DNA of 52,405 nt from a virus (IMGVR_UViG_3300021440_000028:1-52405), one strand, 5' to 3'. Positions 39,668 to 47,141 are shown, counted from the stretch's first letter. Notes: generated by a model from the letters alone, not told the origin. A program made the numbers and translations.

Positions 39668-39690
39668 CAGGCGCGGGATTTGCATACAAT
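39664..39690 (+). promoter_or_regulatory. Putative late promoter PR'
   Basis: TTGACA 39664-39669 and TACAAT 39685-39690, but the spacer is short (15 bp). Confidence 0.55.
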
Positions 39691-39768
39691 CCGGCCCAAG
39701 CCGACAGAGCCGCGATCACTGCGGCACAAGCAAAAGAGGCCCCGCCCACGCTGGCGGAGCCGACCCCG

Positions 39769-39800
39769 AAAAGCCCGCCACCGTGCGGGCTTCGTCGTTT
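39769..39800 (+). terminator. Putative tR'-like terminator
   Basis: AAGCCCGC-CACCGT-GCGGGCTT then CGTCGTTT. Confidence 0.55.
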
Positions 39801-39917
39801 CTGGACGGCCGGCGGCCTGGGCCGGCGGCGCGGAGTCACAGACCGCGCCCATGCATTCGCACCGCGCTGCCCGGTGACCAGGTGAGGAAGCAAACAGCAT
39901 GCGCCCAGCGCGGACCA

Positions 39918-39999
39918 CGGCCGGACGGTCGCCCGCGTGAGTCTGATGGGCGCGTTCCGCCGGCGGATGCCGGCACCTTGCCGCGGTGGATGCCGAGGC
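39918..39999 (+). promoter_or_regulatory. Three GGAY-tetraloop hairpins in the terS leader
   Basis: 39918-39931, 39959-39974 and 39980-39999. Confidence 0.6.
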
Positions 40000-40010
40000 G
40001 GGAGAAGCGT

Positions 40011-40523
40011 ATGGCCAGAGCGCAAGCCCAGCCGGCGCAGCAGAAGTCCAAGGGCGGACGCCCAACCAAGTTCGACGCCAAGCTGGTGAAGCAGGCCCGC
40101 GAGCTGGCGCTGCTGGGCCTGACCGATGCCGAGATGGCAAAGGTGTTCGACGTCGCGAACTCGACGTTCAAGGAGTGGAAGGCAGCGCATCCGGCGTTCG
40201 CGCGGGCGCTGATCGACGGCAAAACCATCGCCGACGCCCAGGTCGCCGCCAGCCTGCACCACCGCGCCGTCGGCTACAGCCACCCCGAGACGGTCATCAA
40301 CGCCTGGCAGGGGACGATCATCAAGACGCGGGTGATCCGACACTACCCGCCAGATACCCAGGCGGCCCTAAAGTGGCTGCACAACCGGCACCCGAGCCGC
40401 TGGCGTGCCCAGCCCGAGCCGATGGATGACGACGAGGCGCCGCCGCCGGTCAAGGTCGTGATCGAAGTCAAGGACGCCCGCAAGCGCCCCGACGATGCCG
40501 AGCCTGAACCGGCCACAGGCTGA
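40011..40523 (+). CDS. terS: Terminase small subunit
   Basis: GRPTKF, LGLTD.EMA..F.V, ADA.VA.SL..RA.GY and HYPPDT.AA..WL.NR motifs. Confidence 0.9.
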   Translation: MARAQAQPAQQKSKGGRPTKFDAKLVKQARELALLGLTDAEMAKVFDVANSTFKEWKAAHPAFARALIDGKTIADAQVAASLHHRAVGYSHPETVINAWQGTIIKTRVIRHYPPDTQAALKWLHNRHPSRWRAQPEPMDDDEAPPPVKVVIEVKDARKRPDDAEPEPATG

Positions 40524-41778
40524 GTTCCTGGCGCTGCCGCAGAAGTACCGGGCCTATGTCGCCGGCTTCGGGGCAGGAAAGACCTTTGCGGGAGCCGCAG
40601 CGCACTGCAGGCACTCGCTGGAGTGGCCGCGGGTCAACGCCGGCTACTTCGCGCCGACCTACCCGCTGATCCGGGACATCTTCTATCCGACGATCGAGGA
40701 GGTCGCGCACGACTGGGGCTTGCGGGTCAAGGCGCACGAGTCGAACAAGGAGGTGCACCTCTTCAGCGGCCGGCAGTACCGCAGCACGATCATCTGTCGC
40801 AGCCTGGAGAAGCCGGCCGACATCGTCGGCTTCAAGATCGGCCACGCCCAGGTCGACGAGCTGGACCTGCTGAAGCCGGACAAGGCGGCGGCGGCCTGGC
40901 GGAAGATCCTCGGTCGGATGCGTTACAAGCGCGACGGCCTGCGCAACGGCATCGACGTGACCACGACGCCCGAGGGCTTCCGGTTCGTCTGGCAGCAGTT
41001 CGTGCGGGATGTCCGCGCGAAGCCCGAGCTGGCCAAGCTCTACGGCATGGTGCAGGCCAGCACCTACGACAACGAGGCAAACCTCCCCGACGACTACATC
41101 GACAGCCTGCGCGCCAGCTACCCGCGCCAGCTGATTCGCGCCTACCTGCGCGGCCTGTTCGTCAACCTGGCCAGTGGCAGCGTCTACGCCGACTTCGACC
41201 GCGAACTGAACGGCTGCACGACGCTGCCGCGCGAGGGTGAAACGCTGCACGTCGGCATGGACTTCAACGTGCTGAAGATGGCCGCGGTGGTCTTCGTCGA
41301 CCGCGACAACGACCCGCACGCCGTCGGCGAGTTCGCCAACGTGCGCGACACGCCGACGATGGTCAGGCTGCTGCGCGAGCGGTACGTGCTGGACAGGAAA
41401 GCGCCGCACAACCTGGTGATCTACCCCGACGCGAGCGGGCAGAACACCAGCAGCAAGAACGCCAGCGAGTCGGACCTGAGCATCCTGCGGCAGGCCGGCT
41501 TCACGGTGAAGGTCAACAGCCACAACCCGAAGGTCAAGGACCGGGTCAACGCCGTCAACGCCCTGATCCTGAACGACAAGGGCCAGCGCCGGCTGAAGGT
41601 CAACGCCCAGGCCTGCCCGCACTTCACCGAGGCGCTGGAACAGCAGGCCTACGACGAGCACGGCGACCCGGACAAGTCGGCGGGCCATGACCACCACAAC
41701 GACGCCGGCGGCTACCGCCTGGTCTACACCTGGCCGGTCAAGAAGCCGGGCGCGGTGATCACCAGCCTGCGCGCCTGA
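40495..41778 (+). CDS. terL: Terminase large subunit
   Basis: AGFGAGKT Walker A, VDELD Walker B, TTTPEG, GMDFN and DH..DA.GY motifs. Confidence 0.95.
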   Translation: MPSLNRPQAEFLALPQKYRAYVAGFGAGKTFAGAAAHCRHSLEWPRVNAGYFAPTYPLIRDIFYPTIEEVAHDWGLRVKAHESNKEVHLFSGRQYRSTIICRSLEKPADIVGFKIGHAQVDELDLLKPDKAAAAWRKILGRMRYKRDGLRNGIDVTTTPEGFRFVWQQFVRDVRAKPELAKLYGMVQASTYDNEANLPDDYIDSLRASYPRQLIRAYLRGLFVNLASGSVYADFDRELNGCTTLPREGETLHVGMDFNVLKMAAVVFVDRDNDPHAVGEFANVRDTPTMVRLLRERYVLDRKAPHNLVIYPDASGQNTSSKNASESDLSILRQAGFTVKVNSHNPKVKDRVNAVNALILNDKGQRRLKVNAQACPHFTEALEQQAYDEHGDPDKSAGHDHHNDAGGYRLVYTWPVKKPGAVITSLRA

Positions 41779-41792
41779 GAAAGCACCCCAGC

Positions 41793-43205
41793 ATGGCCCA
41801 AACCGTCGCATCACAGTCGCAGGAAGTCGCCGAGATGTCGGCCGACTGGGAGCTGTGTGAGGACCTGCTGGAAGGCACGCGGGCCATGCGCGCGGCGCGC
41901 GGCAAGTACCTGCCAAAGTGGCCGGCCGAGGAGGCCGACGCCTACGACGCCCGCGTGAAGTCGGCGGTCCTGTTCCCGGCCTACAGCCGCACGGTCTCGA
42001 CGCTGACCGGCAAGCCGTTCGGCAAGCCGCTGGTGCTGAGCGAGGATGCGCCGCCGCAGGTTGTCAAGTGGATGCAGGACGCCGACCGCGAGGGCCGCAA
42101 CCTGCACGCCTTCGCGGCCGACTGCATGCAGACGGCGCTGGGCTTCGGGTTCGGCGGCATCCTGGTTGAGTACCCGGTCGTGAAGCGCGAGCCCGGCTCC
42201 CGGCCGCTGACTCAGGCCGAGGAAGCGGCACAGAAGCTGCGGCCCTATCTGGTGCTGGTCAAGCCCGAGCGCATCCTGGGCTGGCGCACGCAGCGCGTGA
42301 ACGGCCAGACGGTGCTGACGCAGCTTCGGCTGATGGAGGAGATCGAGGAGCCCGACGGCGAGTGGGGCGTGAAGTGCGTCGACCAGGTGCGCGTGCTGAC
42401 GCCCGGAGCCTGGGAGATCTGGCGCAAGCCGGAGGGGAAGGATTGGCAGGACGCGACGCTGTTCGACAGCGGCACCACGTCGCTGGCCTACATCCCGTTC
42501 GTGCCGTTCTACGGACAGCGCGAGGGCTTCATGGAGGCCAAGCCCCCTTTGCTGGAGGTCGCACACCTGAACGTCGCGCACTGGCAGTCGGCCAGCGACC
42601 AGCAGAACATCCTGCACGTTGCCCGGGTGCCGATCCTGTTCGGCAAGATGCTGGGCGATGGCGTGACGCTGAAGGTCGGCGCGCAGTCTGGCGTGATGGC
42701 CACGACGCCCGAGGCCGATCTGAAGTGGGTTGAGCACTCGGGCGCGGCGATCGAGGCCGGCAAGGCAGATCTGGAGGCGCTGGAAGAGCGCATGCGCCAG
42801 GCCGGCGCCGAGCTGCTGGTGATCAAGCCTGGCCAGGTCACAGCAACGCAGACGGGCGTCGAGAACGCCGTCGGCATGTGCGCGCTGCAGCGCATCACGC
42901 TGGACCTGCAGGATGCGCTGAACGCGGCGCTGGCGATCGTCTCGGAGTACGCGAAGCTGCAGCCGGCGGCCACGGTCACGATCTACAGCGACTTCGGCGT
43001 GTCGACGCTGGCCGAGGCCTCCGCCGATCTGCTGCGCAACGCAGCCGATGGCGGCTACATCAGCGCGGTGTCGTTCCGCGAGGAACTGCGTCGCCGCAAC
43101 CAGTACGCGGTCGACGAGGACACCGAACTGGCGCGGCTGGAGGCGCAGGGGCCGAACCTGGGCACGGTGAACAACCCGGCGGGCGGCGGTGGCAACGCTC
43201 AATGA
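41793..43205 (+). CDS. Portal protein (DUF4055-like)
   Basis: GT.AMR.A..KYLP.WP.E, PPL..A.LN..HWQS.SDQ and TATQ motifs. Confidence 0.9.
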   Translation: MAQTVASQSQEVAEMSADWELCEDLLEGTRAMRAARGKYLPKWPAEEADAYDARVKSAVLFPAYSRTVSTLTGKPFGKPLVLSEDAPPQVVKWMQDADREGRNLHAFAADCMQTALGFGFGGILVEYPVVKREPGSRPLTQAEEAAQKLRPYLVLVKPERILGWRTQRVNGQTVLTQLRLMEEIEEPDGEWGVKCVDQVRVLTPGAWEIWRKPEGKDWQDATLFDSGTTSLAYIPFVPFYGQREGFMEAKPPLLEVAHLNVAHWQSASDQQNILHVARVPILFGKMLGDGVTLKVGAQSGVMATTPEADLKWVEHSGAAIEAGKADLEALEERMRQAGAELLVIKPGQVTATQTGVENAVGMCALQRITLDLQDALNAALAIVSEYAKLQPAATVTIYSDFGVSTLAEASADLLRNAADGGYISAVSFREELRRRNQYAVDEDTELARLEAQGPNLGTVNNPAGGGGNAQ

Positions 43206-44304
43206 CCGGCTGCAGGATGATGTCGTCTCGCACGCCGTCGACCTGCAGCAATTCGGAAATCACCTGGTCGCGAGGATCATCGCGCAGCTCAATCGGACCG
43301 ACGCAGAGCTGATCGGCCGGCTGCAGGCAGCCCTGGATGGGCTGCCGGCGACGGCCACAAGCGTGGAGAGGATCGGCGCGCTGCTGCAGAGCGTGCGGAC
43401 GCTGAACCTGACGGCCTACCAGGCGATCGAGCGCGAGCTGACCGCCGAGCTGCGCGCGCTGGCCGACTACGAGGCCGGGCACCAGCTGGAGCTGTTCCGC
43501 GCCGAGATCCCGCCGCAGATCGTCACCCGCGTGGGCGTGGCGGCGGTCAACGTCGAGCAGGTGTTCGCCGCGGCCATGTCCCGGCCGTTCCAGGGCCGGC
43601 TGCTGCGCGAGTGGGCGGCGGACATCGGCGAGGCCCGGATGGTGCGCATTCGCGACGCGGTGCGGCAGGGCTTCGTGCAGAACGAGAGCATCGGCCAGAT
43701 CGTGCAGCGCATCCGCGGCACGCGGGCCAGGGCCTACAAGGACGGCCTGCTGGAGATCGACCGGCGCGGCGCCGAGGCGGTGGTGCGGACGGCAGTCAGC
43801 CACACGGCCGGCTTCGTGCGCGATCGGTTCATGGAGCAGAACGGCGACCTCGTGAAGGCCGAGGTCTGGACATCGACGCTGGACAGCCGCACCAGCGAGG
43901 GATGCCGGATCCGCGACGGCCTGCAGTACACGCCAGGCGATCACAAGCCGATCGGGCACAAGGTGCCATGGCTCGGCGGGCCGGGCCGGCTGCACTGGTG
44001 CTGTCGCAGCACGGCGGTGCCGGTGGTGAAGTCCTGGCGCGAGCTGGGCGTGCCGATCGATGAGATGCCGCCCGGCGAGCGGGCCAGCATGGATGGCCAG
44101 GTGCCCGCCGACACGACGTTCGCGGCCTGGATCAAGCGGCAGAGCGCCGCGCGGCAGGATCAGGTGCTGGGCGCCACGCGCGGCCGGCTGATGCGTTCCG
44201 GCGGGATGGATCTGCCGGACTTCTACGACAACAAGGGGACGATGCTCACCCTGGACGAGCTGCGCCAGCGCGACGCGGCGGCATTCAGGCGGGCAGGGCT
44301 GTAG
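43189..44304 (+). CDS. Minor head protein (SPP1 gp7 / Mu gpF-like)
   Basis: VRTA..H.A, STLD.RTS..C..RDG and HW.CRST motifs. Confidence 0.88.
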   Translation: MATLNDRLQDDVVSHAVDLQQFGNHLVARIIAQLNRTDAELIGRLQAALDGLPATATSVERIGALLQSVRTLNLTAYQAIERELTAELRALADYEAGHQLELFRAEIPPQIVTRVGVAAVNVEQVFAAAMSRPFQGRLLREWAADIGEARMVRIRDAVRQGFVQNESIGQIVQRIRGTRARAYKDGLLEIDRRGAEAVVRTAVSHTAGFVRDRFMEQNGDLVKAEVWTSTLDSRTSEGCRIRDGLQYTPGDHKPIGHKVPWLGGPGRLHWCCRSTAVPVVKSWRELGVPIDEMPPGERASMDGQVPADTTFAAWIKRQSAARQDQVLGATRGRLMRSGGMDLPDFYDNKGTMLTLDELRQRDAAAFRRAGL

Positions 44305-44314
44305 CATCGGCGCC

Positions 44315-44551
44315 GTGCCGCTGCACCTGATCCCCGGAACCCCCGCGCCTGACACGCCAGCCGAGCGGGTGCGCAAGCGCCTGCGCGCGACGAAGCCGGC
44401 CGAGATGCTGCAGTGCCGGCGGTGCGCCGGCCGCGAGGTGCTTGTGAGCATCACCGGCGCGACGATCAAGGGCGGCAAGGTGTCCGGCGGGACGAAGGCA
44501 TGGCTGTGCGCGACGTGTCACCGCAAGGGCGAGAGGGTGGTGCTGGCGTGA
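44315..44551 (+). CDS. Small zinc-ribbon protein
   Basis: QCRRC.GRE...LCATC. Confidence 0.65.
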   Translation: MPLHLIPGTPAPDTPAERVRKRLRATKPAEMLQCRRCAGREVLVSITGATIKGGKVSGGTKAWLCATCHRKGERVVLA

Positions 44552-44685
44552 TCTGCAAGCCCCGCATCAAGCGCGACGGCCGCGGCTGGGCATGTGCAGG
44601 CCTTGGCAAGGAAGGCAACGGCAGGACGCCCCGCGCAGCGTTTCTCGACTGGCTGAACGAGGCCAGCTTCTTCCCGTACATCTGA
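44548..44685 (+). CDS. Small hypothetical protein
   Basis: KPRIK...W.C...G.G.TP..AF..W motif. Confidence 0.5.
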   Translation: MICKPRIKRDGRGWACAGLGKEGNGRTPRAAFLDWLNEASFFPYI

Positions 44686-44822
44686 AGCCCGCCGGACTGG
44701 CAGCGACGGGCCCAGCGCCAGCCGGCGAGCACCCCCGGCTGTCGAGACTGCCAGACCGGCCAACCAGGGCGCCGCGCTTGCCGGACGCGCACTCTCCAGC
44801 CCGACATCAGACGCACTACTCC

Positions 44823-44855
44823 GAAGGCCCCGCGGCGCAAGTCACGGGGCCTTTC
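44823..44855 (+). terminator. Hairpin/terminator upstream of the scaffold leader
   Basis: AAGGCCCCG/CGGGGCCTT stem followed by TCTC. Confidence 0.5.
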
Positions 44856-44857
44856 TC

Positions 44858-44947
44858 ATGCCCGCGCCGCGGATGCGGCAGGGCATCCAGGCCGGACGGC
44901 CACCAATCGCGGCGGATGCCGCACCCACCCGCTGGCGGACGCCGGCG
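44858..44947 (+). promoter_or_regulatory. Four tandem GGAY-tetraloop hairpins in the scaffold leader
   Basis: 44866-44879, 44890-44901, 44909-44922 and 44930-44947. Confidence 0.7.
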
Positions 44948-44966
44948 CAACCTTGACCACACCACT

Positions 44967-45740
44967 ATGCCCTTCAAGTACGACGCCCAAGGCCAGATCG
45001 TCACCGCCGACCACAACGGCATCAAGCTCCCCGTGTTCGTCCACCCGGACGGCAAGGAGGCGCCGTTTGATGCTGACGGCACGATCAACTCGATCAACGC
45101 CCGCGCCGAGCAGTCGCGCCGCGTTGAAGGCGAGAACAAGACGCTCAAGGAGCAACTTGCCGCGTTCGATGGTCTGGACGCCGTGAAGGCCCGCGAAGCC
45201 ATCGAGAAGATGAGCACCGTCGATCTGTCGAAGATGGTGCACGCAGGCGAAGTGGAGAAGGTCAAGGGCGAGATCGCCAAGACCTACGAGGCGAAGCTGG
45301 CCGCCAAGGACCAGGAGATGGCGCAGAAAGACGCGGCCATTTGGAAGCGCACGATGGACGCCGCCTTCAACGGCTCCAAGTTCATCGGCGAGAAGGTCGC
45401 CATCCCCGCGCAGTTCCTGCGCTCCACCTACGCCCAGCACTTCAAGCCGGGCGAGGACGGCGAGCCGGTCGGCTACTTTGCTGACGGTCGACCGATCATG
45501 TCCTCCAGCACGCCGACCAAGTTCGCGTCCTTTGATGAGGCGATGGAATCGATCATCGCCTCAGACCCTCACAAGGCGTCGATCCTGAAGGGCAGCGGCG
45601 CGTCCGGTGGTGGCGCGACCGGCGGTGGCAGCGGCGGTGGCAACGGCAAGACCCAGATCTCGCGCGCAGCCTGGCAGGCCCTGAGCCCGCTGGAGCAGCG
45701 CGCCAAGGCGACCGACCCCAAGGTCGAGATCGTCGACTGA
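44967..45740 (+). CDS. Capsid scaffolding protein (DUF6651-like)
   Basis: PV.VH.DGKE.PFD, coiled coil, F..SKFI.EK and ILK..GASG.G motifs; lies before the capsid gene. Confidence 0.85.
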   Translation: MPFKYDAQGQIVTADHNGIKLPVFVHPDGKEAPFDADGTINSINARAEQSRRVEGENKTLKEQLAAFDGLDAVKAREAIEKMSTVDLSKMVHAGEVEKVKGEIAKTYEAKLAAKDQEMAQKDAAIWKRTMDAAFNGSKFIGEKVAIPAQFLRSTYAQHFKPGEDGEPVGYFADGRPIMSSSTPTKFASFDEAMESIIASDPHKASILKGSGASGGGATGGGSGGGNGKTQISRAAWQALSPLEQRAKATDPKVEIVD

Positions 45741-45840
45741 GCACGGCGGGAGACCGCCGGCACCCGGCCCCGGATGGGGATCGGTTCAACCAGGCCGCAC
45801 GTCGCGGCCACGTTCCCATCTGACAAAGGAAACCGCCATC

Positions 45841-47141
45841 ATGGCAAACCTCCGCACTTCCCTCCGCACCGCTGCGCTGGCCTTCGTGGCCGCCGTCGCG
45901 GCCTTCAACCCGATCGCCACCATGGCCTCCGCCACCGCGCGGCTGGCCGACTGGCTGCTGCAACCGGTGCCCCAGGGCGGCGTCCTGGCCGCCAACACGC
46001 TGACCGGCATGATCAGCACCATCTACACGGCGCTCGACGTCGTGTCGCGCGAGCTGATCGGCTTCATCCCGTTCGTGTCGCGTGACGCCACCAGCGCCAG
46101 CGGTGCGGTCGGCCAGACCGTGCGCTCGCCGATCGCTCCCGCGATCAGCCTGGAAGACGTCAGCCCGGGCGCGACCCCGGCCGACTCGGGCGACCAGACC
46201 ATCGGCTATGCCGACGTGACGATCACCCGCAGCAAGGCCGCGCCGATCCGCTGGACCGGTGAGGAGCAGCTGTCGGTCAGCCAGTTCGGCCAATACAACG
46301 TGATTTTGGCCGGTCAGTTCCAGCAGGCCTTCCGCGCGCTGGCCAACCTGGTGGAGAGCGACATCGCGCTGGCAGCCAAGGCCGCCGCGTCGCGCGCCTA
46401 CGGCACGGCCGGCACCACGCCGTTCGCCACCGCGGCCGATCTGTCGGACCTGTCGCAGATCAACAAGATCCTGGACGACAACGGCGCCCCCGCGTCGGGC
46501 CGCGCGATGGTGCTGAACTCGGCCTCGCGCGCCGTGCTGGAAGGCAAGCACAGCGAGCTGTTCCGCGTGAACGAGGCGGGTGACGCTGCCGCCATGCTGC
46601 GCGAGCGCCAGATGCGTCGCCTGATGGGCTTCAGCATGGGCTACTCGGCCGGCCTGGTGACGCACACCAAGGGCACGGGCGCCAGCTACCTGGTGAACAA
46701 CGGCAGCGGCATCGCCATCGGCGGCACGACCATCGCGGCCGACACCGGCTCTGGCACCGTCCTGGCCGGCGACGTGGTGACCTTCGCGGCCGACTCGGCC
46801 AACAAGTACGTGGTCGGCACCGCGCTGTCCGGCGGTTCGTTCTCGCTGAACAAGCCGGGCGCCCTGGTGGCTATCCCCGACAACAACGCCATCACCGTGG
46901 GCAACAACTACACGCCCAACATCGCGTTCACGCAGAACGCGATCGTGCTGGCAGCCCGGGTGCCGGCCATGCCGGAAGGCGGCGACTCGGCCGACGACGT
47001 GATGCTGAGACCGATCCAGTCTCGGGCCTGACCTTCCAGGTCGCCATGTACCGCCAGTACCGCCGCGTGAAGATCGAGGTGTCGCTGGCCTGGGGCGTGG
47101 GCACGCCGAAATCGGAACACATCGCCCTGTTGCTGGGCTGA
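45841..47141 (+). CDS. Major capsid protein (P22 gp5-like), frameshifted near 47008
   Basis: [22 protein letters not shown] motif. The first frame stops at 47031. The family-like C-terminus [30 protein letters not shown]...EHIALLLG is in the -1 frame, ending at 47141. Confidence 0.9.

Follow-up and report, generated by a model that had tools for sequence, protein, structure and literature searches.

GGAU-tipped hairpin arrays in the leaders of phage head-assembly genes and their candidate readers

Hairpins with a fixed loop beside the start of a virion gene are known from the coat operators of phages MS2, Qbeta and PP7 which, like the autoregulation of the P22 scaffold, are associated with a proposed feedback by structural proteins. 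A similar arrangement is present in the stretch of DNA considered here, IMGVR_UViG_3300021440_000028 (the window), a complete phage genome of 52,405 bp and about 69% GC, in which four short hairpins with GGAU or GGAC (GGAY) loops precede the scaffold gene. This leader differs from the coat operators in being an array of two to four hairpins, in lying upstream of the start codon instead of covering it, and in occurring in double-stranded DNA (dsDNA) phages. P22 scaffold synthesis is reportedly autoregulated at the post-transcriptional level, according to studies of 1985; to our knowledge, such control of scaffold synthesis is documented, genetically, for P22 only, and we know of no defined RNA target of the P22 scaffold. 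The phages concerned share a P22-type coat, with a weak match to PF11651 in the window and the annotation 'P22 coat protein 5 family' in relatives, whereas P22 itself is without the leader. Scaffold and coat subunits are made by the hundred and those of portal and terminase in small numbers, all from one late transcript; how this comes about is mostly unexplained, and the motif offers a way into this question.

The targets of CsrA/RsmA, and the decoy RNAs of the CsrB/RsmZ type, likewise carry several short GGA hairpins, one of them beside the ribosome-binding site, an arrangement suited to a multivalent protein. The CsrA consensus is CANGGAYG / RUACARGGAUGU. The leader hairpins do present GGA in the loop of a short hairpin, but depart from the A(N)GGA loop of about 6 nucleotides (nt): theirs is a 4-nt GGAU closed by C-G and not ANGGAN. 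There are also hosts without CsrA, and the hairpins occur only in phage head-gene leaders. The TwoAYGGAY RNA motif, which we take to be Rfam RF01731, also consists of repeated hairpins with a conserved GGA-containing terminal loop; it differs in having two hairpins with AYGGAY hexaloops. Rfam 15 gave no match at the gathering score for the window or for 20 related loci, the region 44500-45000 returning four unrelated weak rows (E <= 10), so that the view of the first-pass annotation, made from the sequence alone, that this is not a named motif stands. A literature search, with supplementary motif lists outside its scope, found no description of a GGAU-hairpin head-gene leader, and passages of the Minerva preprint concern TwoAYGGAY and UG27, not this motif. 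The GGAU leader is of the fixed-loop hairpin operator or leader kind and is in no catalogued family.

The boxB hairpins of lambda and P22 are similar in size, with 5-bp stems and a purine-rich loop of 4-5 nt. However, boxB/nut sites lie downstream of early promoters and have another loop sequence; the leaders belong to late head genes and are tied to start codons, which argues against boxB/nut sites. The late operons of HK97, HK639, lambda and P22 contain terminators, and a window hairpin at 44823-44854 is of the same kind, that of HK639 being annotated. The GGAY hairpins differ from these in having no U-tract and form a separate element without mention in annotations. A further parallel is the T4 endoribonuclease RegB, a phage-encoded factor reading GGA(G/U) in intergenic leaders; it acts on GGAG, rarely GGAU, and needs single-stranded GGAG together with an A-rich run (PMC1702504). 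RegB-like cleavage was set aside because of this requirement, the leader GGAU being held in a tight GC hairpin.

The hairpin array and its conservation

The elements of the scaffold leader of the window are the following.

44823-44854, + strand: terminator-like hairpin GGCCCCG...CGGGGCC followed by UUUCUCAU; in the minimum-energy fold, and the conserved element that opens the leader
44858-44886, + strand: hairpin 1, two-tiered, with the outer stem AUGCCC/GGGCAU; fits helices 1 and 2 of covariance model R1 (below)
44866-44879, + strand: inner stem-loop of hairpin 1, GCCGC-GGAU-GCGGC
44890-44901, + strand: hairpin 2, GGCC-GGAC-GGCC, found in the sequence, the fold and the R1 alignment
44909-44922, + strand: hairpin 3, GCGGC-GGAU-GCCGC, found in the same three ways
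44930-44947, + strand: hairpin 4, CGCUGGC-GGAC-GCCGGCG, with one U·G pair; an extra copy beyond the usual three
44948-44966, + strand: C/A-rich spacer to the scaffold ATG, without a Shine-Dalgarno (SD) sequence

The first-pass annotation had listed eight such hairpins, four before the scaffold, three before terS and one before the capsid gene, and all eight are present. It had also remarked on the missing SD of the scaffold start, which is borne out by the 19 nt 5' of the ATG, CAACCUUGACCACACCACU; the relatives L001, L003 and L007 likewise have an SD-less, CA-rich spacer before the scaffold. The minimum-energy fold of the scaffold leader retains all four GGAY hairpins and the terminator-like hairpin (z = -2.65). 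None of the four is followed by a U-run, as an intrinsic terminator would be; counterparts of the terminator-like hairpin in relatives carry U6-8.

Across the genome, the + strand has 19 hairpins with a GGAY loop on a stem of at least 4 bp and the - strand has 6, and 300 dinucleotide-preserving shuffles gave a + strand mean of 9.7 (standard deviation 3.1). The densest cluster contains four hairpins per 100 nt, as against at most two in 300 whole-genome shuffles. In local shuffles, the observed number of hairpins was matched in 0/2000 for the scaffold leader (four hairpins) and 0/2000 for the terS leader (three), and in 47/2000 for the single hairpin of the capsid leader. Of the 141 occurrences of GGAT on the + strand, 12 form such a loop, versus 4 of 159 on the - strand; for the commonest loop tetramers listed the proportion is about 2-3%. 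The observation of the first-pass annotation is thus confirmed.

The scaffold protein, a member of DUF6651 (PF20356), has 637 homologues at E <= 1e-10, with PF20356 in all 120 among the matches listed. Single-protein locus searches returned one viral locus and none in genomes, and at the DNA level the phage collection held one short match to the leaders (Caulobacter phage DMCA) and none to the terS leader. A related set of 80 prophage loci was fetched by profile search, and counts made with R1 refer to 82 loci. Of 49 loci inspected over the 170 nt preceding the scaffold ATG, 45 contain one or more stem-GGAN-stem hairpins and 42 contain at least two. The common layout is an intrinsic terminator with a T-run, hairpins 1-3, an SD (often GGAG) and the ATG. 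Hairpin 1 has a consensus outer stem UGCCyG/GGGCG and an inner x-C-GGAU-G-x, hairpin 2 is typically GGGCC-GGAU-GGCCC and hairpin 3 typically GGGC-GGAU-GCCC.

Thirty-four seed leaders, excluding that of the window, were aligned with MAFFT. RNAalifold recovered 8 pairs only from the raw alignment because the hairpins were misaligned, and the structure was therefore set by hand from per-sequence folds. The covariance model R1 built from this alignment matches the window at 44858-44934 (42.6 bits, E 6e-11); this is its best match there, the terS leader coming second and the capsid leader third. Over the 82 loci R1 gives 103 matches, 102 of them on the coding strand. The motif stands directly before the scaffold ATG in 77 of these loci, and in 25/82 a second copy precedes the capsid gene (E <= 0.1).

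The four helices of the 34-leader alignment, which does not depend on R1, have 89.1% of their cells paired, compared with 68.4% in column shuffles and 31-49% in slid controls. Double changes number 116 as opposed to 40.5 in shuffles, the observed number being reached in 0/500. The covariation for which the first-pass annotation had proposed to test homologous leaders is present. In the 103-match alignment, which is fitted to R1 and hence biased towards it, 90.7% of cells are paired and all 18 pairs show double changes. The stems contain 169 G·U against 21 A·C pairs, an excess which indicates selection on the sense-strand RNA and not on DNA or antisense RNA. The loop is GGAU in 88/103 cases for hairpin 1, 92/103 for hairpin 2 and 63/103 for hairpin 3, with mostly GGAC or GGAA in the remainder. 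It is 4 nt long and closed by C-G, and the two bases before GGA belong to the stem, mostly GC or CC. Among 69 distinct scaffold leaders, 50 have three GGAN hairpins, 18 have two and one has a single hairpin; a terminator hairpin with T-run lies directly upstream in 54, and the median distance from the end of the last hairpin to the start codon is 12 nt. Covarying stems, a fixed GGAY loop, the near-exclusive coding-strand location and the G·U excess together make the element almost certainly a conserved sense-strand RNA structure, in agreement with the first-pass proposal. A strongly covarying and uncatalogued RNA element located exactly at head-protein genes is a candidate new family for catalogues of the Rfam type, and could serve as a marker of head-gene starts in phage annotation.

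Further copies, distribution and variants

Copies of the motif in the other two leaders of the window score lower with R1.

39929-40013, + strand: terS-leader copy extending to the terS ATG, second-best R1 match (18.6 bits, E about 1e-3)
within 39929-40013, + strand: outer hairpin GCCCGC...GGGCGC of the terS leader
39918-39931, + strand: first terS hairpin, CGGCC-GGAC-GGUCG, in competition with a longer hairpin at 39899-39955
39959-39974, + strand: terS-leader hairpin GCCGGC-GGAU-GCCGGC
39977-40002, + strand: terS-leader GGAU hairpin, followed by the SD GGGAGAAG and the terS ATG at 40011
45760-45843, + strand: weak partial copy in the capsid leader, extending to the capsid ATG (R1 13.8 bits, E 0.027)
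45768-45779, + strand: CCCC-GGAU-GGGG, resembling hairpin 1, outside the minimum-energy fold

The minimum-energy fold of the terS leader retains two of the three hairpins (z = -0.75), the first being lost to the longer competing hairpin, and the third contains one internal G·A mismatch. The order in the capsid leader is CCCC-GGAU-GGGG, a second, unrelated hairpin (GGCCGCACGUCGCGGCC), the SD AAGGAAA and, at 45841, the ATG; in the minimum-energy fold GGAUGGGGAU pairs with a downstream CCCAUC stretch and displaces the GGAU hairpin. The first-pass statement that the stems stay paired is accordingly to be corrected for the third hairpin of terS, and the minimum-energy folds contain the four hairpins of the scaffold leader and two of terS, but not the first terS and the capsid hairpin.

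The terS-leader hairpins are kept in the close relatives L089, L101, L102 and L103, whose terS is 77-99% identical, and in part in L091. Pair-preserving changes are seen in these relatives: GGUCG becomes GGCCGC, the first terS hairpin of L101 and L103 reading GCGGCC-GGAC-GGCCGC, and a U·G closing pair becomes U-A. As far as the compared leaders indicate, the terS copy, being confined to close relatives, is a trait of the lineage of the window, and the scaffold and capsid copies are general. The motif is thus shared in a regulon-like manner by leaders of head and packaging genes, as first suggested, with scaffold and capsid represented in relatives and terS in the phage itself and its close relatives.

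Two observations concern these leaders separately. The outer sequence of the long terS-leader hairpin at 39899-39955 (GCGCCCAGC...GAUGGGCGC) recurs in the terS leaders of L092, L094, L095 and L099, whose terS is 34-50% identical, and this hairpin could be a late-leader element in its own right. Of 26 capsid leaders, 7 contain, further downstream, at least 7 nt exactly complementary to a GGA-containing stretch of the leader; in several cases this is CCCAUCCGGG, the complement of hairpin 1. Among the leaders concerned are those of L081 (3298-3394), L078, L042, L041, L002 and L066, and the window has an imperfect version at 45772-45815. Complementarity of this kind predicts an alternative long-range helix enclosing hairpin 2.

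The loci come from Pseudomonas, Cupriavidus, Pandoraea, Acidovorax, Labrys, Afipia, Xanthobacter, Rhizobium, Roseovarius, Pantoea, an Opitutaceae metagenome-assembled genome (MAG) and others, and the motif spans phages of alpha-, beta- and gammaproteobacteria, of cyanobacteria and of the Verrucomicrobia (the Opitutaceae MAG). IMG/VR was scanned for three CGGATG cores with GC flanks; at least 120 stretches matched and 80 loci were evaluated. Among the matches listed, 41/94 form three real hairpins (80 loci), and in 38 of these a DUF6651 open reading frame (ORF) follows, two being too short downstream and one having another continuation. In the remaining 53/94 among the matches listed, a DUF6651 ORF follows in 19, 5 are too short and 29 resemble tandem repeats.

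Five whole host genomes gave ten R1 matches, one to three each. Seven are the scaffold leaders of loci in the set, one lies about 0.9 kb downstream of such a locus and two are weak (E 0.004-0.006). This concentration at prophage scaffold genes indicates that the element is not a host repeat, and a genome-wide repeat resembling repetitive extragenic palindromic (REP) sequences was rejected, since 8/10 matches in the five genomes lie at or beside such genes. In E. coli phage HK639, R1 scores 55.4 bits before HK639_05, where the GenBank record annotates a terminator only; this leader is present in 12 of 5426 complete E. coli genomes, and the presence of the motif in a laboratory phage makes the question of function directly testable.

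Loop variants occur in several phages. Caulobacter phage DMCA shows GGAA tips in its leader. Both the scaffold and the capsid gene are preceded by the motif in Salicola phage CGphi29, Rhizobium phage RHph_X2_24 and Synechococcus phage Ssp-JY42, and a GAGAU pentaloop replaces GGAU in one capsid hairpin of Ssp-JY42 (L229 capsid leader), as it does in the terS leader of L091. In Microcystis phage Me-ZS1 (L228, 1430-1500), the pentaloops GUGAU, GCGAU and GUGAA precede the scaffold homologue. The tip is therefore better written G-(N)-G-A-Y/A, and the variants suggest a reader that tolerates one extra base between the two Gs. The boxB pentaloop folds like a GNRA tetraloop with one base flipped out; the G-N-G-A-U pentaloops could, by analogy, fold in the same way. 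In DUF6651 loci of low-GC hosts, namely L070, L072 and L074 (Acinetobacter), L071 and L005 (Moraxella), the GGAU hairpins are lost, but the terminator is retained together with the AUGCCUG that begins hairpin 1, and L005 has one GGAA hairpin.

Comparison with the IMG/VR contig L001 places an exchange within the array itself. Identity to the window is 85-98% from 43389 to 44888, at the end of hairpin 1, 55-79% over 44889-45688, which takes in the remainder of the leader and the greater part of the scaffold gene, and 92% at 45689-45788. This drop indicates that the scaffold cassette was exchanged together with hairpins 2-4, one joint lying inside the hairpin array.

Candidate readers and alternative explanations

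The GGAU leader probably lets one reader tune the amount of head proteins. Its repeated identical G-G-A-U/C tips, closed by C-G, would form a multivalent platform for a single RNA-binding reader supplied by the head module of the phage. We tentatively prefer, at a probability somewhat short of even, to explain the head-gene leaders as translational operators that a phage-encoded protein reads. A reader from the head module is favoured by the lineage-specific tips, the diversity of hosts, the position of a hairpin in the ribosome footprint and the movement of hairpins 2-4 with the scaffold cassette. Indeed, a position about 12 nt before the start codon is inside the footprint of the 30S subunit, loop variants follow phage lineage (for example the Me-ZS1 pentaloops), and the constant companions of the motif are the scaffold gene and a capsid gene which, in the cases checked, has a P22-coat-family label or a weak Pfam match.

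By analogy with the post-transcriptional autoregulation of the P22 scaffold, unassembled DUF6651 scaffold protein is the most likely reader and the first candidate. Free scaffold bound to the hairpin beside the ribosome-binding region would lower the translation, and possibly the stability, of the scaffold, capsid and, in the window phage, terS mRNAs, and the output of head proteins would then follow assembly. It is possible, though doubtful, that this extends to a regulon of dsDNA phages in which free DUF6651 scaffold or its P22-type coat partner binds arrays with G(N)GAY tips in scaffold, coat and some terS leaders and sets head-protein stoichiometry at the post-transcriptional level in hundreds of phages of Proteobacteria and cyanobacteria, the leaders doubling as recombination joints for cassette swaps. 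Such a feedback regulon, if real, would supply the kind of RNA operator that has long been missing from the story of P22 scaffold autoregulation.

Several results weigh against the operator interpretation. P22 itself, in which genes 1 and 8 are only 13 nt apart, gives no R1 match and was rejected as a carrier of the motif. A look-up of RNA sequencing runs returned none for 44300-46300. Five DUF6651 loci (Acinetobacter, Moraxella and one proteobacterial MAG) gave no R1 match, showing that the motif is not indispensable to this scaffold family. No terS-leader copy was found in six prophages of more distant relationship, examined with 8-9 kb of flank on the upstream side, and only two of them showed a terS homologue; a single 17-bit match in these prophages falls inside terL. 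An SD-like 4-mer follows the last hairpin in only 36/69 distinct leaders, which therefore differ in their relation to the ribosome site. Finally, the AlphaFold2 model of the scaffold (mean predicted local distance difference test score, pLDDT, 74.5) consists of a small sheet at the N-terminus, long helices and an alpha/beta part at the C-terminus, without a recognisable RNA-binding fold, and a Foldseek search of the PDB gave no match at E <= 0.001; it thus offers no structural hint of RNA binding.

A small phage protein had also been proposed as the reader. The zinc-ribbon ORF at 44315-44551, the only conserved small neighbour, was considered as a reader of the Mu Com kind and rejected: it occurs in 24/82 loci (iterated hidden Markov model search), one of them without the motif, and the suggestion of a small phage protein was not sustained. 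The Mu-F-like gene is not universal either, being found in 60/82 loci (tblastn), and some modules pass directly from portal to scaffold.

A different kind of reader would be a universal host component other than CsrA, such as the 30S subunit, protein S1, an RNase or a chaperone, for which the GGA tips would be standby or enhancer sites recruiting ribosomes to head genes expressed at a very high level, most useful where an SD is absent, as in the window. The occurrence of the motif in phages of very different hosts would be accounted for in this way, as would the SD-less, CA-rich spacers of the window, L001, L003 and L007; moreover, scaffold and capsid exceed the other head proteins in abundance, and GGA is the core of the SD. 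We consider this unlikely, however, because conservation is not limited to GGA but includes the closing C-G and the last base of the loop, which is U and less frequently C or A, because GGAUG is a poor match to the anti-SD, and because the nearest loop of the window is 26 nt from the AUG. In addition, the five host genomes contained two weak matches only away from prophage head genes, and the variant loop of another phage group, the Me-ZS1 pentaloop, is better suited to a lineage-specific reader.

Equally unlikely is a purely structural function, in which the polycistronic late mRNA is cut in the U-tract that follows the terminator hairpin, the hairpin stack shields the 5' end so created and isolates the ribosome site, and GGAU is merely a favourable tetraloop; the scaffold-capsid segment would then outlive the portal-terminase segment. 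It draws on the terminator hairpin and U-tract found immediately before hairpin 1 in 54/69 distinct leaders, on the start of hairpin 1 within a few nt of the U-tract, and on the stabilisation of bacterial mRNAs such as ompA by 5' hairpins. Left without explanation are the one common loop sequence amid freely changing stems and the G-N-G-A-U pentaloop variants, and GGAU is outside the extra-stable tetraloop classes UNCG, GNRA and CUUG. The two functions are not exclusive: hairpin 1, which abuts the U-tract, would probably stabilise the 5' end of a message cut at that point, and such a role may coexist with that of operator.

An antitermination or pausing signal on nascent RNA, of the boxB/N or HK022 put kind, which would make polymerase resistant to terminators throughout the head operon, is distinctly improbable. 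Small hairpins of about 5 bp with loops of 4-5 nt do recall boxB, the operon has internal terminators, and the relative HK639 uses RNA-based antitermination elsewhere; but the motif comes after and not before the adjoining terminator, with its 3' end tied to the start codon, no Rfam match was obtained, and no boxA-like element was noticed, no search for boxA or an N-like protein having been made. 

Binding of host CsrA/RsmA, one of the readers named in the first-pass annotation, is more improbable still. GGA lies in hairpin loops, the CsrB repeats read CAGGAUG, the consensus obtained by systematic evolution of ligands by exponential enrichment (SELEX) contains GGAUG, and the Pseudomonas and Luteibacter hosts encode CsrA. 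Against this, a CsrA family gene (PF02599) is absent from the phage and from 8 of 10 host genomes with motif-bearing prophages (two Cupriavidus, Acidovorax, Labrys, Xanthobacter, Rhizobium, Methyloversatilis and Roseovarius), and the C-closed GGAU tetraloop has no A two bases upstream of GGA and is not an ANGGAN hexaloop. Host CsrA was rejected as a general reader on these grounds. Least probable of all, and practically negligible, are chance GC-rich palindromes, sites for proteins at the DNA level or a genome-wide REP-like repeat: at 69% GC about 2.5% of the occurrences of the commonest tetramers are flanked by at least 4 bp of complement, but the shuffles never reached the observed cluster, the strand bias and the G·U excess are those of an RNA, and strong matches in whole host genomes are found only at prophage head genes.

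Late-gene order and reading frames around the leaders

The late genes of the window were assigned by PHROG and Pfam scans.

40011-40523, + strand: terS (PHROG 309, E 6.6e-44)
40495-41778: terL
41793-43205: portal
43189-44304: Mu-F-like head morphogenesis protein
44315-44551: zinc-ribbon ORF of 78 amino acids (aa), CxxC...CxxC (PHROG 15916; weak DUF6300 match)
44967-45740, + strand: scaffold, 257 aa (DUF6651/PF20356; PHROG 784 and 206)
45841-47031, + strand: major capsid (PHROG 283, E 3.9e-77)

The similarity of the major capsid to the P22 coat family is weak (PF11651, E 6.6e-5) and below the Pfam cut-off. A long ORF, 44592-45740, spans the scaffold-leader hairpins, but homology begins only at its residue 129, and the length of the scaffold homologues (255-262 aa) fixes the scaffold start at 44967. 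Coding periodicity in GC content at third codon positions (GC3) is absent from 44686-44966 and from 39668-40010. Together with the point at which homology begins, this places the scaffold and terS hairpin clusters in non-coding leaders of 281 and 343 nt, respectively.

Between the upstream gene, which ends at about 39667, and the terS leader, terminator-like hairpins stand back to back on both strands (39738-39792), which suggests that the terS leader opens a new transcription unit. A 45-aa ORF with coding GC3 (44548-44685) overlaps the zinc-ribbon ORF; among the relatives, L001 alone has a copy.

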